Numbered from the stretch's first letter, positions 1,993 through 60,677 are shown. The stretch: 64,000 bases of DNA from Candidatus Thorarchaeota archaeon SMTZ1-45 (GCA_001563335.1 LRSL01000117.1:1-64000); one strand, 5' to 3'. A program made the numbers and translations. The notes: generated from the letters alone by a model not told the origin.

Positions 1993-2124
1993 ATCAGTTT
2001 TCTACTTGCATAGCAGTGTCTAATTGTGATACGAATCCTCTTGTGTTCCAATGCACCTATTCGAAATCTAAGAATGATAAGGTCTATATCCCTTGTCGAT
2101 TTAGCATGTGACGGGAAATGGGAG

Positions 2125-14180: not shown

Positions 14181-15746
14181 ATGTATCTAGATATTCTTAG
14201 AGAAGACCCTCCTTTAAGGAGATATGTGTCAAGAGGAGATACGCCAGATGATGTTGATATCCCTGGTCCTCATCAAGAGGCTGATCGTGCTATCTTTCGT
14301 GTGGCAAGATTCACGATGAAAGATCGCACACCCCGATTTCAACCGATACTTGGTGCAGCTGGAATGGGGAAGACACATCTCTATTGGGTTATAAAAGAAC
14401 AAGAAGGTCTTTTCGCAGCAGGTAAATTTCTTGCTGTATATGTTCCATCACCACCGTTTCCAGTTCGAATACCACTCCATTTTCATGCCTGTATTGTCGA
14501 CGAAGGCGGAGATGAGCTGTTCGAAGACACTGTTGATATGCTATTAACAAAGTTTGGAGGCGTGAAAGGAGTAACACATGAGGTTTACGATTACAACTAT
14601 GCAATGGAACGGCTTCTTGTAGACTATCCAGGAATCTCAGCGGATGCTGCCAAGGCTCTCCTTAGATACAGACTAGATCCAGCAACTAGAGACCTTTCAC
14701 GTAGGTGGCTGCTTGGCGATACTTTGAGTGAAACTGAGCTAGAGCGACTAGGAGTTCGTACATTCCTTGAAGAAGATGATGTTACATTTGCCATGCTTAA
14801 GATTTTGACTGAGGGTTCATCGAGACCTATCGTTTTGTTTGTTGATGAGATGGAAGGACCATTCAATGCTTATGGCGAGGAGGCCGAACGTCACTTCTTA
14901 GAAATCCTAAAACGCCTCTACAATGAAACAAAAAATGTCATTATTGTCGCATCTTGTTTAACGGAGATTTGGGACCGAATATACGCTCTAGCTGATGGTC
15001 CAACAAAATCAAGGATGGAAGCCCCCATTCACCTAAAACCATTCACAAAGGAAGATGTATCTGCCTTTGTTTCTGAAACCATGGCCAAGTATTGGGAACT
15101 TCAGAACATCGAGCCCCCTCCTGATCCGTTATTTCCATTTATAGAAAGAGATATTGAAGCCGCATTTTCTAAAAGTGAGGGGAATCCTCGAGAGGCAATT
15201 CGTTTTCTAATTCCTAGATTGGATGAGATTGTGTTTGAAAAGAAAGAAGCAGAGATTGTGCCGCAAGAAGACTATGTTATCAAGCTAACAGCATCAGTCG
15301 TTCTTAATTCAATTGTACAAGCAATAACCCTTGCGGCAAATCCTCTTGGAATCGAAGTTGAACTTAAGGTTTCGGGAGCTGGAACACAAAAACAAGAAGC
15401 AACAATCCTTAACCTGACGAAGGAGGGTATAACTCAATCTATTGGTATTGATTTGCCCAATGTAAAAGAGTGGGATCGAAGTGGAGGCGTCGCTGCTTAC
15501 TATTCTGCAAATCGTCTTAAGACTGTCTTGGACACAAATACTGCCAAAGCTGCTGTGATTGCAGTTCCAACATCCACAAAAGGTACTAAGTTTGAAGCCA
15601 TAATTGAGGAGCTTGGAAGTGCACTGCTAACACTTCGGTTTGATGAGGACACCGCAACTTCATTTGTGCGTGAAACTAGTGAAGGTACTCTTCCACACGG
15701 ATACGCAGAGTCCTTCACTGGACTTGTCGACGGATTGTTTAGCTAG
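14181..15746 (+). CDS. AAA+-type P-loop ATPase with uncharacterised C-terminal alpha/beta domain
   Basis: Walker A GAAGMGKT, Walker B LFVDEME, Arg finger KSRM, sensor-2 GNPRE. Possible ATT start at 14139. Confidence 0.8.
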   Translation: MYLDILREDPPLRRYVSRGDTPDDVDIPGPHQEADRAIFRVARFTMKDRTPRFQPILGAAGMGKTHLYWVIKEQEGLFAAGKFLAVYVPSPPFPVRIPLHFHACIVDEGGDELFEDTVDMLLTKFGGVKGVTHEVYDYNYAMERLLVDYPGISADAAKALLRYRLDPATRDLSRRWLLGDTLSETELERLGVRTFLEEDDVTFAMLKILTEGSSRPIVLFVDEMEGPFNAYGEEAERHFLEILKRLYNETKNVIIVASCLTEIWDRIYALADGPTKSRMEAPIHLKPFTKEDVSAFVSETMAKYWELQNIEPPPDPLFPFIERDIEAAFSKSEGNPREAIRFLIPRLDEIVFEKKEAEIVPQEDYVIKLTASVVLNSIVQAITLAANPLGIEVELKVSGAGTQKQEATILNLTKEGITQSIGIDLPNVKEWDRSGGVAAYYSANRLKTVLDTNTAKAAVIAVPTSTKGTKFEAIIEELGSALLTLRFDEDTATSFVRETSEGTLPHGYAESFTGLVDGLFS

Positions 15747-16852
15747 TGGTATCTTCTTCGATAATACCAGATTGAAAACATCAAAATTGAAACAGATGTC
15801 CCTCCCACACCCAGGATCCAATAGAAGGTTTCTCGTCTGATTTGCTCATATTCCAGACATGGGTCTGTAAATGAGAATCTCACAGATATTATACCATCAG
15901 GATTTTCCGCAAAAAGGTCTGTTTCAAAATTAATTTCTTCATCTCCAAAGGTATCAAAAATAACATAGAGATCTGGTCTATAGTATCCTAAATCAATCCA
16001 GAAATTATACCTATGCTCACTCTCACAAGTGAAATATCCTCCACAGGAATAATTTGAGATGGTCCAAAGATAGAGTACTTCTTTGTCCTCTACTCCATAA
16101 TCCTCAAAGTCAATGATGAAGCCTGTGATTGATGGATACAGTTCTAAATATGGAATACCTAGTAAGGCAACAAACAATTCGCATGTATTGCCTTTGTTAT
16201 AAATCATGAAATAGAATTCATCGGTCATACTATATGGTAAGAACTCCACCACAACTCTTGTGTCACCACTGCTCTCTAGCCTATATAGGTAAGGACTCGT
16301 ACTCTCAAAGTACGTAATAGAAACTGTGTTGTCTTTTGGGTCATCCACATCCTCCAGGTTGAAGAGATTCGTATATTGGAAATCAATTTCATCTATGGAA
16401 GAGAAGGTGATATTGTATACTGCATTATCTACAGGATCAAGATTCCTTACTGCTGTAACGTACTTGGTCTGACCAGTACCTTCAAAGACACACCTGCAGG
16501 TGTAGTTGTTTTCTGTTCCACAAGTAGTGATGTATTCATAGTTATAGGAGAAATCAGTGTAGTTGTAGATGCTGATTGTGAGTTCTGGCCAACCAGTAGA
16601 GCCTTCAAATTCTAGAGCTGTAATGTTAATTTCAAGCTGAAGACTATTCATTCCTCGTATCCAAATAACGAAGAATTGTGTTGTGCCTCCGGCAATACCT
16701 TCCATGTCGTAATCAACTATAGTGATGCTTGTAGCTTGCACTTCTTGAAAATTGAGTAAGCTAAATGGATTAAAAACTAGGAAAAGGGCTAGAAAGATTG
16801 CTACGACTCGTTTTGTCTCAATCATCATAGTCATCAAGACATTACAAACCAC
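15743..16852 (-). CDS. Secreted, C-terminally anchored surface protein
   Basis: Signal peptide (KRVVAIFLALFLVF), acidic aromatic-rich ectodomain, C-terminal TM followed by RRRYH. Confidence 0.75.
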   Translation of the reverse strand: MVCNVLMTMMIETKRVVAIFLALFLVFNPFSLLNFQEVQATSITIVDYDMEGIAGGTTQFFVIWIRGMNSLQLEINITALEFEGSTGWPELTISIYNYTDFSYNYEYITTCGTENNYTCRCVFEGTGQTKYVTAVRNLDPVDNAVYNITFSSIDEIDFQYTNLFNLEDVDDPKDNTVSITYFESTSPYLYRLESSGDTRVVVEFLPYSMTDEFYFMIYNKGNTCELFVALLGIPYLELYPSITGFIIDFEDYGVEDKEVLYLWTISNYSCGGYFTCESEHRYNFWIDLGYYRPDLYVIFDTFGDEEINFETDLFAENPDGIISVRFSFTDPCLEYEQIRRETFYWILGVGGTSVSILMFSIWYYRRRYH

Positions 16853-33280: not shown

Positions 33281-34669
33281 TTGGGAATCCCATTGTTTGA
33301 TGGTATCGGTGTCTTCTTCAGAAAACGGAGATACCTTGCTTATTTCATTGTGTTTGTAGCCACTACCTTTCTTGGTCTATTCATGTCATGGTTGATGAGT
33401 ACCTATGCAGGCACACCTGTTGAGGCGACTCTTGTCTACTTCTTTGCTTACATTGGCTCAGCGGGTACAATCTATTTCGCTTTTGGATCTTTAATCACTG
33501 GCATAGGTATTGATAGACTGTGGATTACTAGACGTGGTAGAGGTAGAACCACAGAACTGAAAGGAGTAAGTTGGATGGCTGTGTCTTTTGCCATCTCTGT
33601 ATTTCTTTCAATTCTAACAGGTCCAACGACCATGCTCTTCTTTGCTATTTTCTGTTGGGTTGGTTGGATAGCTTTTCAGGGTTATCTATCCACTCGAACA
33701 AGCTTGAGGCTTGCTACAATTGCAGAACCTAAGAAGGGAGGTGTCCTTTTAGGCACAGGGAGTTTCATTCTTCTTCTCATTGGGCTTGTCTTGATTGGTG
33801 CAGAAGCCTTACTCGCTTTATATCTAGTCCCGAATGATATCCTTGGTATTGGCACCCTTATCAATGGCATTTTTACTGACGCGACGAACAATATAATGCT
33901 GCAATACAACTTTCTGATCGTGGCTTATGCTATGATGGGACTTTTCGCGCTCGTCATGTTATTATCATTCATCAGGAATATTGGCAAGGGCGCCGCATTG
34001 AACATTGCCTTGCTAACCAATTTCATTGCAATATATGCAGGATACTTTCTGGTTAATGTGATGAGAAGGGGTGGCATATTTGGCATGACTCCTGTAGACA
34101 TTGCTATGTCTCTCTTCTTCCTAGCATATGCCTTAAGTGGAATAGGACGAACAGCCACAGAAGCAGCTGAGAAACCGGGTGGACGTTCAGGTGATTTCGG
34201 ACCTCTTGCTACATTCTTCCTTGCAAGTGGTTACTTCTTCGTGGATAGTATAATCGCAGTAGCTTCCAATCCTTCCACTCAGATATGGGACTGGTTCCAA
34301 GCAGGCATTCTAGCTGATCCACGCTTTCTCTTCCTCTTCAGAGATGTAGCTAAATTGATCGCCTTCCCACTAGCAGCAATCTTTACTGCAGTCTACTATC
34401 TACGTTATGAACGAACAGAACGGATAGTAAGTAGAGCACGCGAGGCTGGTGAAACATTTGCTCCAGATGAAGTTGATAAAGAGATTGCAGATAGAACTCC
34501 AGATCCCGGCGAAGCATGGCCAAGTGAGAGAGCTGAGGGAATCAAGGAAGGAAAACCTGGTCATGATCTGTCAGCGCCAGACACTCGTAGGTTGTCCGTT
34601 GATGACAGTCGGCGTCTTGGTAAACCTAAACGTCTTGGTGAAGAAGACGAGGATGATGAAGGCAACTAG
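33281..34669 (+). CDS. Polytopic membrane protein with acidic C-terminal tail, unknown function
   Basis: About 10 TM helices. GGAGGT RBS with TTG start. Confidence 0.8.
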   Translation: MGIPLFDGIGVFFRKRRYLAYFIVFVATTFLGLFMSWLMSTYAGTPVEATLVYFFAYIGSAGTIYFAFGSLITGIGIDRLWITRRGRGRTTELKGVSWMAVSFAISVFLSILTGPTTMLFFAIFCWVGWIAFQGYLSTRTSLRLATIAEPKKGGVLLGTGSFILLLIGLVLIGAEALLALYLVPNDILGIGTLINGIFTDATNNIMLQYNFLIVAYAMMGLFALVMLLSFIRNIGKGAALNIALLTNFIAIYAGYFLVNVMRRGGIFGMTPVDIAMSLFFLAYALSGIGRTATEAAEKPGGRSGDFGPLATFFLASGYFFVDSIIAVASNPSTQIWDWFQAGILADPRFLFLFRDVAKLIAFPLAAIFTAVYYLRYERTERIVSRAREAGETFAPDEVDKEIADRTPDPGEAWPSERAEGIKEGKPGHDLSAPDTRRLSVDDSRRLGKPKRLGEEDEDDEGN

Positions 34670-36093: not shown

Positions 36094-36879
36094 TCACTTT
36101 TTTTTCTTTGCACACCTTTTAGCAATTAAAGCTGCTACAGAGCCTGCACCCAAACCATTCCCAATATTAACAACTGAAAGACCTGGTGCACATGTCTGTA
36201 ACATTGAAGCTAATGCTGTTTCACCCTTGCCACCATGGCCATATCCAGTTGGAACAGGCACACCAATAACAGGTAAATCGATCAATGATGCGACTACTGT
36301 TGGTAATGCACCCTCCATTCCTGCGAACACCACAACTGCATCAACATCTTCATCTATTATCTTCTGGATAGGTTCAATCAATCTGTGAATACCAGCGACA
36401 CCAACATCATAGAATGTCAATACACCTACACCCATTAATCGAGCGATTGCTTCTGCTTCACGTGCATAGATGACATCCGAAGTTCCTGCAGTAAGAATTG
36501 CAATCTTTCCATTCTTTGGTGGCTCTGACCAGGATTTTGAATACACAAAGACTGTAAGATGGTTGTCAGAACCTAGTTCTTCAATTATAAGACTTGGATG
36601 TGCTTGTTTTATACCATCTAATTTGTCCTGATCCATTCTAGTGAGTAGAACAACACCATTTTTCTCAACCAGAGTCTGCACAATTCGCACAATACTCTCA
36701 GTTGTCTTTGTTTCAGCAAGTACGACCTCTGGGACACCAGTACGTTCCTGTCTATTTACATCTATTAAACCGATGTCTCCAATTCTCGCAAGAGCTAGGG
36801 CTCTAAGTTCTTTTTCTGCATCATCGATAGAAATTTTCCCAGATGCCAAGTCTTCAAGTATTTCACGTGTGGATGTCAT
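36094..36879 (-). CDS. larB: Nickel-pincer cofactor biosynthesis protein LarB
   Basis: R..RTGVPEVV, AGTSD, DVGVAGIHRL, AGMEGALP, VPTGYG, SMLQTCAPG, VVNIGNG. Confidence 0.92.
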   Translation of the reverse strand: MTSTREILEDLASGKISIDDAEKELRALALARIGDIGLIDVNRQERTGVPEVVLAETKTTESIVRIVQTLVEKNGVVLLTRMDQDKLDGIKQAHPSLIIEELGSDNHLTVFVYSKSWSEPPKNGKIAILTAGTSDVIYAREAEAIARLMGVGVLTFYDVGVAGIHRLIEPIQKIIDEDVDAVVVFAGMEGALPTVVASLIDLPVIGVPVPTGYGHGGKGETALASMLQTCAPGLSVVNIGNGLGAGSVAALIAKRCAKKKK

Positions 36880-36923
36880 CGTATTCCTGACAGGTTAGCT
36901 ACTTCTTCTTTTATGTGCGTTTC

Positions 36924-38006
36924 TTAAGGGACAATCTCGCAACCATTGTTATACTTCGGGTAATTAAGCGCATCAATTGATATAATGCCTTCTGCTATGA
37001 TTTCCCTAACTTCTTCGACATGTTTCCTTAATGAGTCAAAGAGATGTTGAGAAACTTGACAAACCTTATTAAAACCTTCATCACCCCAAAGCCTTTGTCT
37101 GTTTGCGAAAAGACATCGTCCTCCACACAATCCATAATCGTCGCAAGATGGACAAGGTTCAACAACACTCATAGAGTCCTTCAATTGTTGAGGATTTGAA
37201 TCCCATATATTACCAACAATTGAAAACTCCCAATCAGGAGATATTGGACACACCCCTATCTTACCATCAACATGAATTGCAAATGTGTCTAAACCAGAAC
37301 CACACCTTAGTTTGGAGGTTTCTCCTGTTATGAGGCTATACATAAGCGGCATAAATGGAACAATCCCCTCCACAGTACCTGATTTCATATTTCCTACCCA
37401 CTCTTCCACAAGTTGAGTAATTCCAGGATTATAGATTTCATTAGTCCACCTATCAAAATCCTGCCAATTGTCTTCTGCATCCCAGATGACATTAAGCTGC
37501 CAATGTACGTGGTCAAAAGAAGGATTTTCGAGATCGATTAGATGTCTAACATCTTTGTAGATGTCTGTCTGTTCTGAAACAGCCATTCTAGCAACAATGT
37601 TTCCTTTATAGCCAAGCTTGCGAAGCCATTTGACATTCTTGATTACTTTTTTGTAGACTCCCTTAGAGCGATATCCATCTGTTGTTTCTTCTGTTCCATC
37701 GATAGATACAAGGATTGAGTGGAATCTCTTGATGTATGCTTCACGGATCTTATCTAGATGGAGCCCATTGGTCTGAAGCATGAATCTTTCCTTTGGAAAG
37801 TGGTCCATCAGTTCAACGATTAAAGGAACCCTAAGTGTAGGCTCACCGCCATAAAGCATGAGCTGTACATCCTTGTCCTTCTTGAGAAAGGTTGCTAGAT
37901 CATTCATCGAATACTGAATCTCAGTATCTGGTCCAATCTCTTCGCCTCCATGACAATAGAAGCAATTGAGATTACACCTTCTAGTTAGGACCAGATGATA
38001 GTTCAA
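36924..38006 (-). CDS. Radical SAM/SPASM protein (archaeal AF0577-like putative peptide-modifying family)
   Basis: CNLNCFYC, YGGEP, QTNG, SIDG, SPASM Cys set (CGSG, CP, CPSC...CGGRC) and C-terminal CEIVP. Confidence 0.88.
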   Translation of the reverse strand: MNYHLVLTRRCNLNCFYCHGGEEIGPDTEIQYSMNDLATFLKKDKDVQLMLYGGEPTLRVPLIVELMDHFPKERFMLQTNGLHLDKIREAYIKRFHSILVSIDGTEETTDGYRSKGVYKKVIKNVKWLRKLGYKGNIVARMAVSEQTDIYKDVRHLIDLENPSFDHVHWQLNVIWDAEDNWQDFDRWTNEIYNPGITQLVEEWVGNMKSGTVEGIVPFMPLMYSLITGETSKLRCGSGLDTFAIHVDGKIGVCPISPDWEFSIVGNIWDSNPQQLKDSMSVVEPCPSCDDYGLCGGRCLFANRQRLWGDEGFNKVCQVSQHLFDSLRKHVEEVREIIAEGIISIDALNYPKYNNGCEIVP

Positions 38007-51480: not shown

Positions 51481-52626
51481 CTATAGACCGTGATATGGAA
51501 ACACTAATTCTTTCACTCGACGAAGTGCTCTCTCGAGGTCCAAAACAATATCTTCTCTTGAGAAGTACATTTGAACAACTTCATTCTTATCTCGCATGAA
51601 TTCTGGTATGTCTTTGTAACCCATTTCGTTACATGTTTCTCTAAACTCGTCAGGCATTTTATTTGGTATATCCTCATCTAGCATAACAGCGAGAAACAGA
51701 GTCCAAAGACGTGCAACGTTGACTGGATGGTACCCACCTCCACCGACAGCAAGCCAACCAAGTTTACATATCTCAGTTGAGATTTCTCGAAGCTTTCCTA
51801 CTACTGTTTCATATCCATGTGAGGTGTATGTTAAATGTGCGAGAGGATCCAAATAATGTCCGTCAACCCCCATTTGGGTCACAAGAAGGTCTGGTTTGAA
51901 GGATTCAAAAAGTGGAACAACAACATCATCGAACACCCGTAATAGTTCTGGTGTTCCAGCTCCAGGAATCAAAGGGACATTCACAGAATAACCAATGCCC
52001 TCAGCAGCACCAGTTTCGTAGATAAATCCTGTTCCAGGAAAGAGTGTCTGTCCAGTTTGGTGTACAGAAATCGTCAGTACATCCTTAGACCTATAGAATG
52101 CATTTTGAACGCCATCACCATGATGCGCATCGAAGTCAAAATACAAAACCTTGCTATTTTGTTTCTTGTGGAGCATTTTGATTGCAATTACAATGTCATT
52201 ATATATACAAAAACCAGATGCTGCGTTTTTGTGTGCGTGATGAAGACCACCTGAGATGCAGAATGCATTAGATGCCCCATCCATTATTGCTCTAATTGCA
52301 TCAAGAGTAGCACCAACATATCTTGCACCTGTTTCATGTATTTGAGGAAAGATAGGATTGTCTGCTGTCCCAAGCCCATAATGAGGATAAGCGTTGTTGT
52401 TCGTCCCACTATCCACAACAGCATTAATGAATTCTGAAGAATGGAACAATTCAAGTTCCTCTCTTGAGGCAAAAGCTGGCTTTAGTTCTTTCACTTTATC
52501 TAGCAATCCAAGCTGTTGTGAAAGCAAATAAGTTAGTTTGAGCCTATCTGGTTTTAAGGGATGATCTCTTCTGAACTCGTATTCAAGAAGTGCGTTTGAA
52601 TAAGGATAGACAAGCTTACCTCTCAT
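51481..52626 (-). CDS. acuC: AcuC / histone-deacetylase-family Zn-dependent deacylase
   Basis: HPLKPDR, GGLHHA, SGFCIYND, DAHHGDG, SVHQ, FPGTG, GVDGH..DPL, GGGGY. Confidence 0.9.
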   Translation of the reverse strand: MRGKLVYPYSNALLEYEFRRDHPLKPDRLKLTYLLSQQLGLLDKVKELKPAFASREELELFHSSEFINAVVDSGTNNNAYPHYGLGTADNPIFPQIHETGARYVGATLDAIRAIMDGASNAFCISGGLHHAHKNAASGFCIYNDIVIAIKMLHKKQNSKVLYFDFDAHHGDGVQNAFYRSKDVLTISVHQTGQTLFPGTGFIYETGAAEGIGYSVNVPLIPGAGTPELLRVFDDVVVPLFESFKPDLLVTQMGVDGHYLDPLAHLTYTSHGYETVVGKLREISTEICKLGWLAVGGGGYHPVNVARLWTLFLAVMLDEDIPNKMPDEFRETCNEMGYKDIPEFMRDKNEVVQMYFSREDIVLDLERALRRVKELVFPYHGL

Positions 52627-52746
52627 CAATATCAATCCTTCAGCAGAACAATACATCATCCCTTCTAAGTCTGTGGTTGCGGAAATAAATTCCAAATTCT
52701 ATTTGTTTTCAAAGCTCTGGTCTTATACCTATTAGATGTCTGACAA

Positions 52747-54915
52747 TTAATCCAGGAATTTGGTCAACCCTCTGGAAAAGGTTGCCTTTGCTTCACTGAG
52801 AGGTATTACAAATTTTCCAAAATCTGCCACAGGATCTGATGTAGTTAGCCCCAGTTCACATGTTGAGATGCCATGTTTGTCAAGTAACTCAAGGAACTCT
52901 GGTTGTTTACTTTCCGTGACTTCCGCTAAATAACGAGAAGCGGTTTCTGAAAAAAGTGCCTGAGCTAAGCTGTTTACTGTGCCAGGAACGTAGTCCATAT
53001 TCAACTTAAACCCATATTCACTATCTACCACCATTTTCATTAGAGCAACAGCGACTCCTCCTCTACCAACATTATTGCAGGATCGTATGAAACCCCGTTC
53101 GTGAGCCTCAAGGATGACATTCATTGCTCGCTTCTCCCAATTAGGTTGATATTTCGGAGGTTCTCCTTTAACTTCACCAATGGTCAATCGTTGAAACTCA
53201 CTACCGTTCAATTCTGGTAGAGTTTCTCCAATTAGGAAGATATTTGCCCAGGGTGTGACAAGGTTTCGTTTAATAGGCGTGAAGCCGCGATTAAACATTC
53301 CTGCAATCATTATCTGAGGCGTTGGATTTATTCTCTTTATTTTTCCATCAATCTCAGATTCGTTATACAATGATACGTTGCCAGCTACGATTGGGAGGTC
53401 AAAGTCATTAGAGAATCTTCCAAGTCCTCTTAGAGCTTCCACAAACTGAGCGTAAGACTCAGGTCTTTCGGGATTGCCAAAATTAAGGCAGTTAGCAATG
53501 AATAATGGCTTTGCTCCCATTGATACAATATTTCTGAGTGACTCAGCAGCTGAATTTGCAGCACCTGTTTGAGGATCAAGCCTGCACCAGAATGAATTGC
53601 AATCACTTGTAAAAGCAAGAAGCCTTCCATTCGGGAACTCTAATACACCTGCATTTTGTCCCAAGTCCACGACAGTATTTGTTTGTACATGTTGGTCATA
53701 CTGACTGAACACCCATGAACGGTCACAAATATTGATTGATTCAAGCATGTTCAGTAGAGCTTTTTTATAATCTTCAGGCTCTTTGAACCAACTCAGAGAG
53801 TCAGTCTGAGCAGGTATTTTTCCTTCAACTCTTTCAGGAATTGGGAAACCATCCACTAGTAGACTGATCGGGAGTCGGGCAATCACCTCTCCTTGATACT
53901 TTGCAGTGTAATGACCATCATTGGTTACATTTCCAATTATTGCATAAGGTGTATCATTCTTTTCGAGTAATGTTATCACACGTTCCATATTTGAAGGAGA
54001 TATAATAGCAAGCATTCTTTCTTGAGACTCAGAGATAATAATCTCTGAGAGTTCCATATCCTTCTCCCTAAGTGGTATTTTTTCTAGATCTATTTCTACT
54101 CCCGTCCCTCCTGCTTTGGCGAGTTCTCCAGCAGCTGATACCAATCCTCCCCCACCAAAATCCTGTAGGCCATCTAGAAGTTCCTCTTCAATGAGTTCAG
54201 TCAGAGTATCAATCAAGACCTTCTTTGCTAGGGGGTCGCCAATCTGAATTGCACCACGACTTTCCCTAGTATCATCTGAAAGTGTTTCTGATGCAAAACT
54301 GACACCTCCTATACCGTCTGGTCCTGTTGTAGCACCAAACATTACGAGATTATGTCCTGGAGTTCTAGCACTGCTTCTAACAACTTTCTCTGGTCTCACA
54401 AATCCGATACATACCACATTAACCAAGCAATTTTCATCGTATGAGTCATCGAACTCGATTTCCCCACCAACAACTGGAATTCCAACACCATTCCCATAAT
54501 CGGATATTCCTCGAACTATGTTCTCAAGAAGATAGGCATTATGAGGTTTCTCTGGGTTTCCAAGCCGCAAACAGTTCATCAAACCCACTGCCTTGCATCC
54601 TTGTGAAATGACATCTCTTACAATTCCTCCAACACCAGTTGCTGCTCCGTTGTATGGATTAACCTGACTTGGATGATTGTGGGACTCCATAGCAACTCCA
54701 ACATAATATCCTCCTCCAATGTCTACAAGCCCTGCTCCTTCTCCAATGCCTAGAATGACATTTTCTCCAGAGGTTTTGAAAAGATAAAACCATCTTTTAC
54801 TACTCTTATAGCTACAATGTTCTGACCAAAGGACGTCGAGCATAGCAAGTTCTGTCTTGGAAAGCTCCCTACCCAAGACTTTCTTTGCATGCTGTAATTC
54901 ATCCTTTGTAATCAT
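52747..54915 (-). CDS. purL: FGAM synthase subunit PurL (small form)
   Basis: WSEHCSYKSS, ESHNHPS, GAATGVGGIVRD, QIGDP, QDFG, SESQERM, QYD, LNFGNP, GNVSLYN. Confidence 0.93.
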   Translation of the reverse strand: MITKDELQHAKKVLGRELSKTELAMLDVLWSEHCSYKSSKRWFYLFKTSGENVILGIGEGAGLVDIGGGYYVGVAMESHNHPSQVNPYNGAATGVGGIVRDVISQGCKAVGLMNCLRLGNPEKPHNAYLLENIVRGISDYGNGVGIPVVGGEIEFDDSYDENCLVNVVCIGFVRPEKVVRSSARTPGHNLVMFGATTGPDGIGGVSFASETLSDDTRESRGAIQIGDPLAKKVLIDTLTELIEEELLDGLQDFGGGGLVSAAGELAKAGGTGVEIDLEKIPLREKDMELSEIIISESQERMLAIISPSNMERVITLLEKNDTPYAIIGNVTNDGHYTAKYQGEVIARLPISLLVDGFPIPERVEGKIPAQTDSLSWFKEPEDYKKALLNMLESINICDRSWVFSQYDQHVQTNTVVDLGQNAGVLEFPNGRLLAFTSDCNSFWCRLDPQTGAANSAAESLRNIVSMGAKPLFIANCLNFGNPERPESYAQFVEALRGLGRFSNDFDLPIVAGNVSLYNESEIDGKIKRINPTPQIMIAGMFNRGFTPIKRNLVTPWANIFLIGETLPELNGSEFQRLTIGEVKGEPPKYQPNWEKRAMNVILEAHERGFIRSCNNVGRGGVAVALMKMVVDSEYGFKLNMDYVPGTVNSLAQALFSETASRYLAEVTESKQPEFLELLDKHGISTCELGLTTSDPVADFGKFVIPLSEAKATFSRGLTKFLD

Positions 54916-55604
54916 TTAGTAGCCCTCACAAAGTTATCCAAAATTTGTAGTCCATCAGAGGATCCTAAAACCGGTCTTGATGCTCTTTCAGGATATGGCA
55001 TCATTCCAAGAACGTTCCCCTTTTGATTTGTAATTCCTGCGATATTTTCAATTGATCCATTTGGATTAGCATCTGTTGTTATTTCACCTTGAGCATCACA
55101 ATATCTGAATGGAATTCGACCCTCATGGTTCAATGCATCAAGATGTTCATTTTGACAGTAATAATTGCCCTCAGCATGAGCTATAGGTACTCGTATAACT
55201 GCACCTTCTATATTCTCAATGAATACAGATGGACTTTCACTTACACGAACATAGACCCATTTACATACAAAACGGGCGGAGTAATTGGGTAGAAGTGCTC
55301 CTGGCAGGAGTCCTGTTTCGGTCAGTATTTGAAAGCCATTGGAGATTCCAATAACTGGTTTCCCATCTTCTGCAAGATCTCTAATACCTTCAGTTATGAC
55401 TTCCATTGACGCGACTGCTCCGGCTCTCAAATAATCCCCATAGGAAAAACCTCCAGGTATCACGATACCATCTGCGTCTTTTAATCCTGCAAGCCCTTTT
55501 CTACTCGGAACAAGGTAAGGTTTTGCCTCGGGAATCTGGTTGAGTGCTCGTAGAACATCGTTCTCACTGTTAGTTCCAGGAAACCTAATCACTGCGATTG
55601 ACAC
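54912..55604 (-). CDS. purQ: PurQ homolog lacking catalytic Cys and His
   Basis: FPGTN, PGGFSYGDYLRAG, GISNGFQIL, AHAEGNY, NPNGS, GMMPYPER. Confidence 0.9.
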   Translation of the reverse strand: MSIAVIRFPGTNSENDVLRALNQIPEAKPYLVPSRKGLAGLKDADGIVIPGGFSYGDYLRAGAVASMEVITEGIRDLAEDGKPVIGISNGFQILTETGLLPGALLPNYSARFVCKWVYVRVSESPSVFIENIEGAVIRVPIAHAEGNYYCQNEHLDALNHEGRIPFRYCDAQGEITTDANPNGSIENIAGITNQKGNVLGMMPYPERASRPVLGSSDGLQILDNFVRATK

Positions 55605-56569
55605 TATTTGAAATTCACCTCTTGCTTTTCGGATATTGGATTTGACAAGAGCTTGATGTTCATAATTTTGAGGTGATTAAGTACTTCAGACGTAATGGGT
55701 TTCCTAAGAAAGATATTGAATACTTTTCCCACTCTCACATCCTCAGCTTCTCCAAATCCTAGTCTAACTAATGCTCTCTTGGTTACCTCTCCTGGGGGAT
55801 TCCTGATTCCATCTTTGGGATTTACTAAGACTTGCACCATCTCTTTCCGAACATTTACTTCCTCTGGTTTGGTTTGGGTTATTACCTCGATGAGTTTCGA
55901 GTAAACCTCGAATATTCCTCCTTTCTCCTTTCCAAATACATCCCTATCTCTCGAATCTGAAGAAGTATCCCATATTCTCATTGTATCCCCTGATAGCTCA
56001 TCCGCCAAAACAATATGCCCATCTTTTGTATAACCAAACTCAAGCTTGAAGTCAACCAGCGTGAGACCCTGTTGCTTCAATAACGCAGTTAAGTAATAGT
56101 TCGTAGAATGGGTTACAGACTGCATGAATTGTAGAATCTCATTTTTCACAAGCCCCAGACTAGTAATTGCATTTTCTATAATCAAAGGATTATTCAGTTT
56201 GTCATCTTTTAAAAAGAATTCAATAATAGGTGATTCAAGAACTGTACCCTCTTCTACTCCATAACGGGTACAAAATGATCCTGCTGCAATGTTTCGGCAC
56301 ACGATCCCTATAGGAAATACATTCACTTTTCTACAGAGTAATCTAGGACCATCAAGCGCTTTCAAAAAGTGTGTGTCTATACCCTTGCCCTCAAGATATC
56401 CGAGAAGATATTCGGTCATCCTGCAAGCCAGATTCCCTTTCCCTTCAATCTCTTCTTGTCTCTTTCTATCTCCTCCCATTACAATATCTGTAAATTCGAT
56501 AATCACATTATCAGTTGATTTAGGGTCTTGGTAGATTCTCTTCACTTTTCCTTCATGAATAAGGTCCAT
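55604..56569 (-). CDS. purC: PurC (SAICAR synthetase)-PurS fusion with degenerate PurC site
   Basis: EGKVK, RNIAAGS, LVDFKLEFG, LADE, RIWD. The C-terminal ~80 aa are PurS-like (NPPG...LGF...VRVGK...LLSNPISE). Confidence 0.85.
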   Translation of the reverse strand: MDLIHEGKVKRIYQDPKSTDNVIIEFTDIVMGGDRKRQEEIEGKGNLACRMTEYLLGYLEGKGIDTHFLKALDGPRLLCRKVNVFPIGIVCRNIAAGSFCTRYGVEEGTVLESPIIEFFLKDDKLNNPLIIENAITSLGLVKNEILQFMQSVTHSTNYYLTALLKQQGLTLVDFKLEFGYTKDGHIVLADELSGDTMRIWDTSSDSRDRDVFGKEKGGIFEVYSKLIEVITQTKPEEVNVRKEMVQVLVNPKDGIRNPPGEVTKRALVRLGFGEAEDVRVGKVFNIFLRKPITSEVLNHLKIMNIKLLSNPISEKQEVNFK

Positions 56570-56617: not shown

Positions 56618-57691
56618 TCATGTTGACACCTCATCAAGACACTTCTCTTCTGCTGCTGCCTTAATATCAAGCATACAAAGATCTAGCGGGCTTTGAATAT
56701 CAGCTTTGAACTTGAGGGACAGTCTTCTCATTTCAGGACTAGTTGGTCCGACACATGGTGCTCCTGGAACTCTTGGACTGAGATCAAAGACAACGAATTC
56801 TGATGATTCTGTAATTGCTCCTTGAAGGGAGAAGAGACCTATCATTTTTGGTGGAAAGTATTCCTTGATTCCTTTCAGCAGAAGCGCTGCAGTTTCATAT
56901 ACCAGCGGTTTCTTACTTTCTCTCATTGTGACTCCTTTGTGCCCAATCTCCTCATTTACCACAGCGATTTCGAGCTTCAGTTGCTCCTTGGCTGGTAGAT
57001 TGAGTAATCCCGAGAGATTAGTTTGGATTCGGTCATCAAAACCCACGAAATCAAAATCACCTAAAACATGAGCCATGCCATATGCTTGGAAATTTGCATT
57101 AAAGCGTGGTGCAATCACAAACTCTTCGATGGTTGCCTCCTCAAGATCCTCTTCTGAGATTATCCCAGCTTTGAGTAATTTCTTGCTCTCTATTTCATAG
57201 TCTGATTGTGAATTTGCGAAAAAGAAGGCTCGCTCAAGCTGATTGTTTTTTTGCTGAACTTTGATAATTGCCAAGCTATCAATCGAGTCCGGAGTGAATG
57301 ATTTTGGGGTCCTAATACCTGATTGTTTTAGAAGCCAGCATTGATCTTTTGGCTGGCCTCTATCTTCAACTCTTAGTACATGCCGATTTCCATATAGTGG
57401 AATTCGAAACTCGTTTTCAATTCCATCATATCCTACATAGACTGAGAACGATCTATTTGGAATCCAAAGTGTGTTTAATTCTTCTAACCTCTTTTGAATG
57501 TCCTCTTGAAGTATATCTTTGAAGCTTTCAAGTATAATGAACTCATCATAGAGATGTCTGTTGAATTGAGTATAGAGATGTTCTCTTCCTCTCTGGCAAA
57601 CTATGACTGTACGAAATCCATTTGCTTTTGCTGCCATACCAATTTCTTCAGCACTATGTGAACCAATCATTCCGATGATGGGTAGTTTCAT
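56618..57691 (-). CDS. PurP-like ATP-grasp protein (PNRSF subgroup)
   Basis: GSHSA, IPNRSF, YGNR, LERAFF, RIQTN, EIGH..TMRES, DLSPRVPG. Confidence 0.88.
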   Translation of the reverse strand: MKLPIIGMIGSHSAEEIGMAAKANGFRTVIVCQRGREHLYTQFNRHLYDEFIILESFKDILQEDIQKRLEELNTLWIPNRSFSVYVGYDGIENEFRIPLYGNRHVLRVEDRGQPKDQCWLLKQSGIRTPKSFTPDSIDSLAIIKVQQKNNQLERAFFFANSQSDYEIESKKLLKAGIISEEDLEEATIEEFVIAPRFNANFQAYGMAHVLGDFDFVGFDDRIQTNLSGLLNLPAKEQLKLEIAVVNEEIGHKGVTMRESKKPLVYETAALLLKGIKEYFPPKMIGLFSLQGAITESSEFVVFDLSPRVPGAPCVGPTSPEMRRLSLKFKADIQSPLDLCMLDIKAAAEEKCLDEVST

Positions 57692-57705: not shown

Positions 57706-58659
57706 TTACTTCAATACTTCATCAAGTTGATTTTGTTCTATGAGCTCACGAATCTCTATCGCAATCCTCCTGCCCATCCAAACTGGCTCTCCATGTTGAA
57801 GATATGAATAGGGTGATGATGGAATCCAAACATTTGTACCTGCAACAATCCTTCCACTGAATTCAAAGGTGTAGATTTGTTGTTCTCTATCAATTACTGT
57901 TTCAATACAAAATGGTCCTGGTATCTTCTGATTGCATAGACGATGAAATGCTTCAACAAAGGCAACACCCATATCAAAATACTCAGCTAATATGGATTCT
58001 CTCAAGACAAGAGGCAAGTTACCAATCACAGTAAAAGTAGGTTCATCATTAAATCGTAGACTAGAGTCTATATCAGTTTCATATCTAATGTCTGCACTAA
58101 AAACCTCAGTTCTATTCCTAGTCAGTGAGTTGAAATAGGTAACGAAAACCTTTGTTCCAACTATATATTCTTGTAAAATATAATCCACTGATGGGTTCAT
58201 CTTCTCTTTAGCCCAATCAGTATTTTTTGCTACAAAATATCCTCTACCTCCTGCAGCGCCATGAGTCTTTGCGATTACAGGGCCATTTATTTCACCCAAT
58301 GATGAGTATTCCTTTGGAACAGTGAATCCAGCTTCCACCATTAGTTTAGATTTCAATTTTCGGTTTTCTTCCCATCTCAGGAGTTCTTTGTTACCAAATA
58401 ATCTCAAGTCTGAATTGAGTAACTTTTGAGCACCAATGTAGGTCACAAAAGAACCATGAGGAATTAATACTACATCCGAGAGGTCCATCTCCAAGATTTG
58501 CTCAAATGAATCGACTTCAACAATCGAGTCTTCCAAACCAAATGATTTGTAGAACGGAATGCGATTGGGACGACAATAAAGTTGGGTATGAAACCCTTCA
58601 GCTTTTGCCCCTGAAATAATGTTAAGAGCGCTATGACTAGCGATGGTTCCAATCTTCAT
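57706..58659 (-). CDS. purP: FAICAR synthetase PurP
   Basis: ASHSAL, GAKAEGF, PHGSF, GGRGYF, RYET, GNLPLVLRES, FEFSGRIVAGTN, MGRRIA. Confidence 0.9.
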   Translation of the reverse strand: MKIGTIASHSALNIISGAKAEGFHTQLYCRPNRIPFYKSFGLEDSIVEVDSFEQILEMDLSDVVLIPHGSFVTYIGAQKLLNSDLRLFGNKELLRWEENRKLKSKLMVEAGFTVPKEYSSLGEINGPVIAKTHGAAGGRGYFVAKNTDWAKEKMNPSVDYILQEYIVGTKVFVTYFNSLTRNRTEVFSADIRYETDIDSSLRFNDEPTFTVIGNLPLVLRESILAEYFDMGVAFVEAFHRLCNQKIPGPFCIETVIDREQQIYTFEFSGRIVAGTNVWIPSSPYSYLQHGEPVWMGRRIAIEIRELIEQNQLDEVLK

Positions 58660-58854
58660 TCCAAGAAATCCCTCTCACAGTGTCTGAAATTAGTTACTGT
58701 TCCTACTTCTTGAACCTTGTCACAGATTCTCTAAGCACACCAAGTACAACAAAAATCTCTTCACCAAGTCCATTACGAGCATGAACCTGTTCCTATTTTA
58801 CCTTGTTTTGTTATGTGCTCTTAGTTATGTATTTTTTCACAATTGCATTCTACA

Positions 58855-59412
58855 TCAGAAGAACTCTCGTAAAATGACACCAACAACGGTCCCAAGAAAT
58901 GTAGCCACTACCATCATGATAAAGTATACCATTGAGAGGGCTAATGCACTTAGGATGAAAGCATCAATTCCTAATTCTGGCACATACAAACCTGGAGAGG
59001 CAAGAAAAATGATAAAGAAAATCATGAAAAAGAAGGCTCCAATGACACTTGAGATTAGAGCTTTTCCAGCTTCAGCCGATGTTAGTCCAATGGGTATAGC
59101 AACAATTATTGGGATGAAAAACAAGTATGTGGCTGAACTCTCGAATCTTGCCGTGATTATAAATGAATATATTGTGGTGTCAATTAACCCAACTAATGCT
59201 GGAACTAATAACATTATCAAAAGGTCTTTCCTTCTTTCAGTCATTGATACTCCTAAAACCTTGACAATTGGTTGAGGTCTCCCATCTTTTTCGATATATT
59301 CTGGTTCTTCTCTAGTCGGAAGTGGTCTTAGAAACCCTTTCTTCTCTTCTGGTTCTTCTTCCTTTTCCGGAGCCTCAACTCTATACTTTTCCTCGTTTGC
59401 CATGAAGACCAC
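58855..59412 (-). CDS. Hypothetical 4-TM membrane protein
   Basis: Charged N-terminus followed by four hydrophobic helices. Confidence 0.75.
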   Translation of the reverse strand: MVFMANEEKYRVEAPEKEEEPEEKKGFLRPLPTREEPEYIEKDGRPQPIVKVLGVSMTERRKDLLIMLLVPALVGLIDTTIYSFIITARFESSATYLFFIPIIVAIPIGLTSAEAGKALISSVIGAFFFMIFFIIFLASPGLYVPELGIDAFILSALALSMVYFIMMVVATFLGTVVGVILREFF

Positions 59413-59546
59413 ACTGCTTTGCCAGAGAGTCTAGTCGCGGAATAAAGTCTTTGCATAACGCAACAAAACGAGATATTAAAATCGGAATGCAACCACAACT
59501 CCTATCTGTAGTTACATATACTCATCTTATAATCGGAGATACTGCG

Positions 59547-60677
59547 ATGGTTGAAGATCGAACGGTTGATAAATTTGGAACAGAAGATGATGTGTCTGAG
59601 GCTTCACTGACAAGACGCAGAAAAATTGAACATATCGAGATTTGTCTTGATGAAGAGGTCCAATGTCAACGGTCTACAATGTTCGAGGACATTGAATTTG
59701 TCCACAATGCATTACCCGAGATAAACAAGGACAAAATCGATCTTACAACCAACTTCTTTGGTTTACGAGCTAGTGCGCCATTGGTCATCGCAGCAATGAC
59801 AGGTGGACATCCTAAGACTAAGAACATCAATCAACGATTAGCGAGTGCAGCAGAAGAACTAGGGTTACCTATAGGTGTTGGTAGTCAGAGAGCTGCAGTA
59901 GAAGACCCATCGCTTGCAGACACATTCACAATAGTAAGAGAGTCTGCACCATCTGTCCCAGTAATTGCAAACATTGGAGCTACACATGTTGATGTAGCTC
60001 CAGAGGCAGTAGAAATGATTGATGCAGATATTCTCGCCATTCATCTTAACCCATTACAAGAAGCAATCCAACCAGAGGGTGACTGCAACTCGATTGGTGC
60101 TTTAGAGAGCATTGCTTCCATTGTTGAATCGGTTGATGTTCCTGTCATTGTCAAAGAAACTGGAGCTGGAATTTCGAGTGATGTAGCAAAGCGTCTAGAA
60201 GAAGTCGGTGTCGTGGGTGTCGATGTTGGAGGCGTGGGCGGAACCAGTTGGGCTGGGGTAGAATATTTCCGCGCACAGAAAGAAGATGATGACCTAAAAG
60301 CTCAGCTTGGTCTTGAGTTTTGGGATTGGGGTATTCCTACAGCTTTGAGTGTACTAATGGTCTTAGATTCAACTGAGCTGGATGTTATTGCTACTGGGGG
60401 AATTCGTAGCGGTCTTGATATTGCGAAAGCGCTGGCACTTGGGGCAACTGCTGCTGGTGTTGCACATCCACTTCTGCGACAAGCAGTTCATGGTTCTTCT
60501 CTTGATGTTGTGGTTGAGCTTGAGCGGTTCCTTGAAGGACTCACAGTTGCCATGTATCTCACGGGGTCTGAGAAGGTTGAGGACTTGTCCTCAAAACAGC
60601 TAATCCTGAGTGGTAAGCTTGTTGAATCACTCAAATCGCTTGGAATCGATTACCAAAAAGTTGCACGTGGAATTTGA
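59547..60677 (+). CDS. fni: Type-2 isopentenyl-diphosphate delta-isomerase
   Basis: RKIEHI, AMTGG, GVGSQR, IHLNPLQE..QPEGD, KETGAG, GGTSW, WGIPT, GGIR. Confidence 0.96.
   Translation: MVEDRTVDKFGTEDDVSEASLTRRRKIEHIEICLDEEVQCQRSTMFEDIEFVHNALPEINKDKIDLTTNFFGLRASAPLVIAAMTGGHPKTKNINQRLASAAEELGLPIGVGSQRAAVEDPSLADTFTIVRESAPSVPVIANIGATHVDVAPEAVEMIDADILAIHLNPLQEAIQPEGDCNSIGALESIASIVESVDVPVIVKETGAGISSDVAKRLEEVGVVGVDVGGVGGTSWAGVEYFRAQKEDDDLKAQLGLEFWDWGIPTALSVLMVLDSTELDVIATGGIRSGLDIAKALALGATAAGVAHPLLRQAVHGSSLDVVVELERFLEGLTVAMYLTGSEKVEDLSSKQLILSGKLVESLKSLGIDYQKVARGI

Follow-up and report, generated by a model that had tools for sequence, protein, structure and literature searches.

An apparent remnant of a de novo purine biosynthetic operon is encoded in a 64,000-nucleotide stretch of the genome of Candidatus Thorarchaeota archaeon SMTZ1-45 (GCA_001563335.1, LRSL01000117.1:1-64000), the whole of which is referred to here as the window. 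The source is a metagenome-assembled genome (MAG) of 3.54 Mb in 119 contigs, with 87.7% completeness and 5.8% contamination. Five tightly packed genes occur on the minus strand in the order purP2, purP1, purC/S, purQ and purL (Table 1), of which the last two, together with the PurS domain of the purC/S product, code for homologues of the formylglycinamidine ribonucleotide (FGAM) synthetase complex. The purC/S stop codon and the purQ GTG start have one base in common and the purQ/purL junction is a four-base ATGA overlap; all three genes are intact, as stated in a preliminary description of this DNA, where they were presented as tightly coupled, overlapping genes with clean frames. The two purP products match the models for the archaeal formate-dependent formyltransferase of aminoimidazole carboxamide ribonucleotide (AICAR), with scores under the cut-offs. 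Where contigs of three further sequencing runs, from three other studies, cover the stretch, they contain zero differing letters, and the covered positions include the codons for Tyr204 of PurQ (X4) and for the E88G, D127N, K209R and R213G changes in PurC (X2, X3), so that, at the low depth of ~2-5 in those runs, the letters do not result from base-calling or assembly errors.

Table 1. Features of the purine locus and its flanks in the window.
Feature	Coordinates	Strand	Remarks
HDAC-family gene	51481-52695	-	flank marker downstream of the operon; conserved
purL/HDAC junction, 51 bp	52696-52746		~4.3 kb (purE/M, purD, guaA) here in pathway-positive relatives
purL (722 aa)	52747-54915	-	profile match; single open frame
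purQ (230 aa)	54912-55604	-	putative glutaminase-dead homologue; GTG start
purC/S fusion gene	55604-56569	-	PF01259 and PF02700 matches
PurS domain, conserved	55607-55843	-	part of fusion protein
PurC (SAICAR synthetase) domain, degenerate	55856-56569	-	part of fusion protein
purP paralogue 1 (357 aa)	56618-57691	-	upstream operon member still retained
purP paralogue 2 (317 aa)	57706-58659	-	upstream operon member still retained
purP2/membrane-protein junction, 195 bp	58660-58854		purN and purF here in congener G045
185-aa membrane protein gene	58855-59412	-	upstream flank marker; conserved
type-2 IPP isomerase homologue	59451-60677	+	upstream flank marker; conserved

The window PurQ matches its family profile well above the cut-off (TIGR01737; 289.8 bits, cut-off 177.8). 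When aligned with the PurQ of Thermotoga maritima (3d54_D), GICNGFQ is replaced by GISNGFQ and MPHPER by MPYPER, with Glu206 kept. The triad positions are occupied by Ser88 (codon TCC, 55341-55343), Tyr204 (TAT, 54993-54995) and Glu206, in place of the Cys-His-Glu found in 33 relatives which retain the purine pathway (pathway-positive relatives), and the catalytic triad of a class I glutamine amidotransferase is absent. As judged from these residues, the window PurQ has neither the nucleophile nor the catalytic histidine. Together with N13S, these changes make up three at the 63 positions invariant in pathway-positive relatives, two of which fall in the triad (hypergeometric p = 0.005), a targeted pattern of catalytic loss in the absence of gene decay, as had been proposed. 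The closest PurQ relatives, P0002 and P0003 (88% and 85% identical; 89% and 86% by BLASTP), are both canonical and carry 0 and 1 changes at the 63 positions. When metagenome contigs were scanned with PurQ, the relatives obtained were all at 44-54% identity and had been picked up by a generic motif. A second canonical purQ or purC elsewhere in the genome, for which a search had been proposed in the preliminary description, was not found, a single match being obtained for each.

The purC/S gene codes for a protein matching both PF01259 (203 bits, cut-off 20) and PF02700 (54.2 bits, cut-off 22.2). Its PurC domain scores 165.3 bits with TIGR00081, below the cut-off of 189.9, and its PF01259 score in the comparison between genomes (204 bits) falls below the range of 219-258 bits covered by all full-length matches from pathway-positive genomes. 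Relative to 32 pathway-positive relatives, the PurC domain is changed by A32G, G35R, E88G, D127N, K209R and R213G, and also by T31M at a position that is not strictly invariant among the relatives. According to the available text on human PAICS, the magnesium ions are bridged by Glu97 and Asp137, and aspartate is held by Thr40, Lys191, Lys228 and Arg232 (PMC9376930), and Arg215 of Escherichia coli PurC is given as a substrate contact by Brown et al. in the available part of their paper (PMC3261824). On the basis of motif spacing and aligned ranges, with no printed alignment, Glu97, Asp137 and Thr40 would correspond to E88, D127 and T31 in the window, and Lys191, Lys228 and Arg232 to K175, K209 and R213. 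The PurC domain thus appears to be devoid of both magnesium-bridging carboxylates and of the aspartate-binding arginine, and the residues expected of the family are not all present; with E88G, D127N and R213G among its changes, the loss of catalytic residues without decay of the gene holds for this domain as well. The PurS domain scores 45.6 bits with TIGR00302 (cut-off 39), retains the core residues of its family and keeps 15 of 16 invariant positions, K256R being the sole change.

The window PurL is recognised by both NF002290 (807 bits, cut-off 648) and TIGR01736 (804 bits, cut-off 526) and keeps the SEHC, SHNHP, GGIVRD, QDFGGGG, SESQER and GNVS motifs, much as first listed. The C-terminal NNVGRGG sequence, which corresponds to HDVAEGG in the PurL of Thermus thermophilus, was read correctly in the preliminary description, where it was also counted among the signs of a rebuilt complex; the latter does not hold, as this motif or a near variant occurs in all members of the family. 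Similarly, the complex was said to be rebuilt around the PurC-PurS fusion, which is encoded in every family-f1 genome with PurS, pathway-positive genomes included, with separate genes in the single f2 genome. Both features are family-wide and accompany an intact pathway, and therefore neither belongs to any rebuild.

Eight changes occur in PurL at invariant positions (D86N, I99V, F118L, S143G, R199P, A203G, F212L and E216T), and all eight are located in the N-terminal A1/B1 domains, to which 138 of the 262 invariant positions belong (p = 0.005). Four of them (R199P, A203G, F212L and E216T) fall in the catalytic-loop region (TGRDG...R), which does not vary among 26 pathway-positive relatives, the stretch reading TGRDGIAGVSFASETFSDEEEENRG in the relatives and TGPDGIGGVSFASETLSDDTRESRG in the window. 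This stretch probably occupies the position of the published catalytic C-loop, which, in the available text of PMC7124931, caps the site for formylglycinamide ribonucleotide (FGAR) and couples it to the glutaminase. The loss of the invariant arginine (R199P), like the scars that deletion has left at either end of the remnant, was absent from the preliminary description. Among the other seven pathway-negative g1 genomes, R220 of this stretch is lost in five, and R199 or D200 is changed in two. The arginine of the TGRDG loop is also replaced (by K, S, G or P) in eight of the 16 readable bacterial PurL proteins encoded beside a PurQ with glycine at the nucleophile position (Gly-PurQ), and in none of the four encoded beside a Cys-PurQ; the change in the loop arginine may thus reflect lost glutaminase coupling rather than lost synthetase activity. 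A separate case is the purL of one pathway-positive genome (G039; L055, 1829-3988), which is broken by one TAA, so that the gene is either wrongly assembled or a recent pseudogene.

In the congener G045 (L046), the operon is encoded in the order purN-purF-purP2-purP1-purC/S-purQ-purL-purE/M-purD-guaA, between the same flank genes as in the window; its purF is a full-length match which, at 330 bits, scores slightly below the cut-off of 350. In the window, 51 bp separate purL from the downstream HDAC-family gene, which in G045 follows guaA, and purP2 is preceded, 195 bp away, by the membrane-protein gene that precedes purN. As these flank genes directly adjoin purL and purP2, both operon flanks have been excised in this lineage; purC/S, purQ and purL would be the central part of an ancestral purine operon of ten genes, and de novo purine synthesis would therefore be impossible for the organism. 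The statement that purF, purD, purM and purE are missing from the window is confirmed and extends to the whole MAG, in which profile searches identified none of these genes and no purN, and tblastn with the PurN, PurF, PurE/M, PurD and GuaA proteins of G045 gave nothing at E<=1e-5. The only weak matches to these families are two glmS genes, a D-Ala-D-Ala-ligase-like gene, sucC, hypE, selD, thiL, a hypE-like gene and larB. The context in which PurL would receive FGAR through PurF, PurD and PurN and deliver FGAM to PurM was thus not found in this MAG, which is 87.7% complete. A purB gene is present on another contig, and purA and a hisF-like gene are also encoded. This gene complement fits a purine-salvaging organism in which AICAR from histidine synthesis is recycled through PurP, which is probably why purP1 and purP2 stay.

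A replacement PurM was sought among the weak matches to the AIRS family and rejected, as these are HypE, SelD, ThiL and one HypE-like protein, and similar open reading frames (ORFs) are found in pathway-positive genomes. The HypE-like candidate, a 358-aa PurM-superfamily protein (G000:C118:40886-41248; L008:976-2049), fits no curated family, its best match being HypE with 133 bits (cut-off 252), and ORFs of 362-371 aa give comparable weak matches to PurM models in both pathway-negative and pathway-positive relatives. In G045, purE and purM form one 478-aa frame (L046:9878-11314; PurE at residues 4-128, PurM at 138-462), and the PurM match lies in a frame of ~480-510 aa in nearly all family-f1 genomes having PurM. 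The sole 'purE-like' match in the window genome is a LarB homologue (245 bits, cut-off 175) beside a radical-SAM gene at 36094-38006 (-) of the window. Elsewhere in the window, ORFs of 858, 521, 369 and 462 aa at 2026-4602 (+), 14181-16852 and 33281-34669 gave no Pfam match (E<=1e-5).

Among 87 species-representative genomes of the class Thorarchaeia, PurM exceeds its cut-off in 33, with one further split copy, and PurD is found in the same genomes and in G006, an incomplete MAG which was counted as pathway-positive, so that 35 genomes are pathway-positive and 52 pathway-negative. PurQ is encoded in 57 genomes (34 pathway-positive and 23 pathway-negative), and both purQ and purL are absent from 29. 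Five states of the locus can be distinguished, namely the full operon; purP2-purP1-purC/S-purQ-purL, as in the window and G032, and also in G033 and G049, on short contigs ending within purL; purC/S-purQ-purL (G036, G054 and G007); purQ-purL alone, without PurS or PurC (13 of the 17 genomes of genus g12, and G010); and nothing, with the flank genes adjacent (G043, G052, G029, G082 and G077). Any role of the remnant is conditional, because 29 genomes dispense with purQ and purL. Of the 56 full-length PurQ proteins, all 33 from pathway-positive genomes have Cys-His-Glu and none lacks the cysteine; among the 23 from pathway-negative genomes, 21 are without it (eight Ser, 12 Gly and one Ala) and two retain it (G033 and G054). 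The fewest changes between Cys and non-Cys states number 11 on a 168-row PurQ tree with metagenome proteins added and five on the 56-row tree. The association between loss of the cysteine and loss of the pathway is perfect in direction, but the independent events in the species set are few.

No new neighbour genes were found in the genomes with only purQ and purL, and the wider synteny is conserved. A functional link to the HDAC-family gene was rejected, as its orthologue is present in 85 of the 87 genomes irrespective of the state of the pur genes and adjoins the upstream flank genes where purQ and purL are gone. A link to thiamine synthesis, in which ThiC needs aminoimidazole ribonucleotide, was likewise discarded, since thiC occurs in 0 of the 87 genomes.

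Selection on the remnants was estimated as omega, the ratio of non-synonymous to synonymous substitution rates (dN/dS), from IQ-TREE codon models, with pairwise dN/dS from NG86. For the whole of PurL, omega is 0.028 in pathway-positive g1 genomes, 0.057 in pathway-negative g1 genomes and 0.095 in genus g12, and for PurQ the corresponding values are 0.061, 0.078 and 0.096. In the same order, the N-terminal half of PurL gives 0.023, 0.063 and 0.097, and the C-terminal half 0.047, 0.046 and 0.089. Two unsaturated pairs agree with these estimates, the g12 PurL pair G065-G062 (dS 0.25, omega 0.097) and the Ser-PurQ pair G047-G049 (dS 0.29, omega 0.10). In four g1 genomes with a dead PurQ, omega of the PurS domain is unchanged (0.081 vs 0.082), whereas that of the PurC domain increases from 0.073 to 0.152; when G000, G032, G034 and G036 are pooled, 49 of 180 invariant cells are changed in PurC, against five of 64 in PurS (Fisher p = 0.0008). 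The purL gene is a single open frame in 15 of the 16 fully covered pathway-negative cases, and in a neutral simulation of purL the probability of having no stop codon was 0.14 at 36 amino-acid changes, 0.019 at 72 and 0/1000 at >=231. The dN of the window genes relative to G045 is no higher than in pathway-positive pairs (0.116 vs 0.129 for PurL; 0.131 vs 0.114-0.154 for PurQ). Selection on the remnants is thus weaker than in the pathway-positive genomes but still strong. Two observations had been named in advance as together pointing to recent decay, intact residues in close relatives and dN/dS near 1; the former was made in P0002 and P0003, and the latter in none of the measurable lineages, and catalytic loss under purifying selection recurs in the relatives.

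Older remnants have gone further than that of the window. In the PurL proteins of g12, G007 and G010, the histidine of SEHC and the first histidine of SHNHP are lost, QIGDP is altered and a deletion has removed the catalytic-loop region. In g12, 78-97% of the invariant positions are kept in the C-terminal A2/B2 domains vs 45-51% in A1/B1. Low omega, intact frames and kept C-terminal positions thus mark the older remnants as genes that are being maintained and not as wrecks. A complex was predicted between the PurL and Gly-PurQ of a g12 genome (G058) with a score of 0.85, the best of three controls scoring 0.00; the mark applied to this score is reached by 58 of 80 solved complexes and two of 110 mismatched pairs. 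The runs agree in >=91% of the contacts and the pLDDT of the partner is >=87. In this model, PurL residues 394-405 contact PurQ and, by position and with the numbering unmapped, probably represent the conserved QFDQH stretch. Because a similar complex, that of T. maritima PurLQS, has already been solved, the prediction may reflect likeness more than binding and lends slight support to the latter.

PurQ proteins without the nucleophile are also found outside the class. Of the 150 nearest representatives of clusters formed at 50% identity, 115 carry a complete triad, and in 21 the position of the nucleophile is occupied by Gly (19), Asp or Ala; only one of these 21 falls inside the Thorarchaeial clade. 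A species-genome scan with one nucleophile-less PurQ returned 32 GIGNGFQ loci in many bacterial and archaeal groups. Seven of these (L190, L191, L193, L196, L197, L199 and L212), from Coriobacteriia, Syntrophomonadaceae, Bacillaceae, Syntrophaceticus, Thermacetogenium, Thermoanaerobacteraceae and Thermotogota, are apparently complete bacterial pur operons (purE-purQ-purL-purF-purM-purN-..-purD). The adjacent PurL contains ESHNHP and SESQER in five (L190, L196, L197, L199 and L212) and is partial in L191 and L193. Gly-PurQ is the sole PurQ homologue in five of five genomes inspected, namely the Coriobacteriia, Syntrophomonadaceae and Thermotogota MAGs, Thermacetogenium and Syntrophaceticus; ESHNHP and SESQER occur in the adjacent PurL of four of these (L190, L196, L197 and L212), three of which also have WSEHCSY, and the PurL of the Syntrophomonadaceae locus (L191) has the loop and Q.GDP motifs only. 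The bacterial Gly-PurQ operons are plausible natural candidates for an ammonia-only FGAM synthetase. At three loci, L192 (Bacillus sp. N9), L195 and L214 (Syntrophaceticus), purL is matched in several pieces beside Gly-PurQ, as are purM, purN, purD and guaA at L192, a picture suggestive of frameshifts or of decay still under way. In Lewinellaceae, Saprospiraceae, Bacteroidales, Cerasicoccus and Propionibacteriaceae, Gly-PurQ-like genes stand alone (L198, L203, L204, L206, L208, L210 and L211), purL being absent from the surrounding 10 kb, and in four Sericytochromatia/Tanganyikabacteria genomes (L222-L225) a Gly-PurQ-like gene lies ~1.3 kb from guaA.

The remnant in the window is rated as a probable case of a pseudoenzyme retained after pathway loss. 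It probably represents a retained non-catalytic PurL-PurQ-PurS assembly which serves something other than FGAM synthesis. Selection would keep this assembly for such a role, with PurQ and the PurC domain, from both of which key catalytic residues are missing, as its non-catalytic parts, and the constrained parts would be the C-terminal half of PurL, the PurS domain and the fold and interface of PurQ. Such a pattern of constraint would be explained better by a role in structure, ligand binding or regulation than by catalysis. The pathway-less state with a dead PurQ recurs in ~20 other Thorarchaeia, and purifying selection after the loss is indicated by omega values of 0.06-0.15 in the sister lineages, whereas for the branch leading to the window the signs are indirect, namely its intact frames and the uneven placement of its changes.

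Several observations weigh against a retained assembly. The nearest PurQ proteins (P0002 and P0003) are canonical, and the window's branch is undated, so that the loss may be recent. Synonymous divergence is saturated for most g1 pairs and the omega values of the subsets include branches that predate the loss. The purQ-purL pair has been lost in 29 of the 87 genomes, where the flank genes are then adjacent, and the remnant is dispensable in many lineages. Of four independent contrasts between the states of the pathway and of the PurQ cysteine, three run in the predicted direction, none in the opposite and one shows no difference, and a sign test is not significant. Decay does happen, as the pathway-negative purL of G066 is split in two frames beside the most divergent PurQ. 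All of the data derive from MAGs, that of the window having 5.8% contamination. In G066, the purL frames lie at L092 3327-5415 and 5429-6124, the sole split pathway-negative purL, and PurQ has Ala88, Tyr204 and changes at 15 of the 63 invariant positions; this is probably a lineage in which the remnant now decays.

A rival explanation is a plain relic, in which the pathway was lost recently and purC/S, purQ and purL are functionless and in early neutral decay, no stop codon or frameshift having arisen as yet. This is unlikely, although it would accommodate the canonical nearest PurQ relatives, the nested deletions of the locus, which have run to completion in 29 of 87 genomes, the broken purL of G066 and the fragmented pur genes beside Gly-PurQ at the Bacillus sp. 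N9 and Syntrophaceticus loci, and a purL left intact after 36 neutral amino-acid changes would still have P = 0.14. The changes are, however, not spread as neutral ones would be, with eight of eight in PurL placed in A1/B1 and two of three in PurQ placed in the triad; dN of the window relative to G045 does not exceed that of pathway-positive pairs; three genes are intact simultaneously; and omega is <=0.15 in every other measurable pathway-negative lineage. The preliminary description had instead raised an ammonia-only FGAM synthetase. On this reading PurL would use free NH3, with PurQ and PurS as a scaffold, and the remaining steps of the pathway would be encoded in the 12% of the genome that is unassembled or be carried out by unrecognised enzymes. 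The intact catalytic motifs of PurL, the completeness of only 87.7% and the bacterial Gly-PurQ, the sole PurQ in five of five genomes within apparently complete pur operons, are compatible with such an enzyme. For the window the idea is not supported, as purF, purD, purN, purM and purE are all gone, and nothing supplies FGAR or consumes FGAM. Five genes are missing together, with their ancestral sites visibly deleted in the contig, and the same absence is seen in 52 of 87 genomes, including the single-contig G010 and G058. In Thorarchaeia, loss of the cysteine never coincides with presence of the pathway (0/33), the older pathway-negative PurL proteins lose catalytic His residues and the loop, and PurC, which the pathway needs, is degenerate. 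An ammonia-only synthetase is accordingly given very little credence in this organism.

Of slightly better standing, yet still improbable, is a neo-enzyme in which PurL, whose superfamily (that of PurM) comprises ATP-dependent enzymes that activate carbonyl groups, acts on a new substrate outside purine synthesis with PurQ as a non-catalytic subunit. The N-terminal half of the g12 PurL has genus-fixed new residues (SERR, ESNNHP and AGVISD) under an omega of 0.097, and the acidic residues of the ES, xxD and xDxGGGG motifs, presumably the metal/ATP ligands of the PurM superfamily, are kept. Conversely, motifs of the FGAR type persist in the window PurL, none of the loci shows a new neighbour gene or a new pathway context, PurL of g12, G007 and G010 has lost the catalytic loop by deletion, and the remnant is lost in many lineages. 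More specific than the retained non-catalytic assembly, and put forward tentatively, is the proposal that in Thorarchaeia, once de novo purine synthesis had been lost repeatedly, the FGAM synthetase complex became a pseudoenzyme module that is inherited stably and senses a ligand or regulates, as a cellular counterpart of the viral glutamine amidotransferase homologue (vGAT); the related Cys-less bacterial PurQ would mark a second, ammonia-only form of the enzyme. PurQ and PurC would die first and PurL next, with the C-terminal half of PurL and the PurQ interface surviving, and the ligand could be glutamine, an adenine nucleotide or purine status.

With the PurL-PurQ-PurS complex of the Bacillus subtilis and T. 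maritima type (PDB 3D54), the window genes share orthology, gene adjacency, the PurS module and the His motifs of PurL, and an interface is predicted even for the doubly dead g12 PurL-PurQ pair. They differ in that the window PurQ has Ser and Tyr in place of Cys and His, that no FGAR supply or PurM was found in the genome and that PurS is fused to PurC, although the fusion is family-wide. Among the 65 archaea studied by Brown et al. (2011), the Cys and Glu of PurQ are fully conserved in those that make purines, according to the available part of the paper (PMC3261824). The gammaherpesvirus vGAT (ORF75) is, like the window PurQ and PurL, an FGAM-synthase homologue without the glutaminase triad; in the available text of PMC7605207, the vGATs are described as PFAS-derived pseudoenzymes which are kept under selection, act non-catalytically and recruit the host PFAS to deamidate RIG-I. 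These are viral proteins from a large fused PurL, whereas those of the window are cellular, archaeal and encoded as split subunits, and the window proteins do not belong to the vGAT family TIGR01739 (PurL 35.6 bits and PurQ 18.3 bits; cut-off 716). The vGAT would be the nearest functional analogue, by analogy and not by membership.

The PurF' of Crenarchaeota, a PurF paralogue without the N-terminal Cys which is proposed to be ammonia-dependent in the available part of PMC3261824, resembles the window PurQ as a purine-pathway amidotransferase kept after loss of its nucleophile. It is, however, a paralogue that accompanies an intact PurF, and its hosts continue to synthesise purines, whereas the window PurQ is the sole copy and its pathway is gone. 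Korarchaeum cryptofilum has, according to the same source, lost de novo synthesis while keeping two adjacent purP-like genes and purB; two adjacent purP genes likewise occur in the window and purB in its genome. For auxotrophs of this type, no retained purL or purQ is described in the available part of PMC3261824, whereas the window keeps purL, purQ and purC/S. The bacterial Gly-PurQ operons share with the window a nucleophile-less PurQ beside purL, but have purE, purF, purM, purN and purD adjacent and most PurL motifs intact. In the literature searched, which left most subscription journals uncovered, no account was found of cellular PurL or PurQ pseudoenzymes, of purine-pathway loss in Thorarchaeia, of an archaeal PurS-SAICAR synthetase fusion or of Cys-less PurQ in bacterial pur operons.

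The automatic annotation of these proteins as active PurQ, PurL and PurC means that pathway reconstructions from MAGs overstate the capacity for purine synthesis, and, as bacteria with complete pur operons carry a Cys-less PurQ, the idea of an ammonia-only FGAM synthetase can be put to a direct test. If the retention of a non-catalytic assembly is true, the Thorarchaeia would provide a natural, replicated experiment in the conversion of a multi-subunit metabolic enzyme into a pseudoenzyme, in which the 56 species-representative sequences require >=5 independent losses, a number that rises to 11 once proteins from metagenomes are added. The pathway would have been lost first, followed by the glutaminase nucleophile, the fused ligase domain and the synthetase active site, with the interface and the structural half constrained throughout, and PurL and PurQ would have had a second role that predates the loss of the pathway. 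Purine auxotrophy would then be common and repeatedly evolved in this Asgard lineage, with dependence on partners or on environmental purines.

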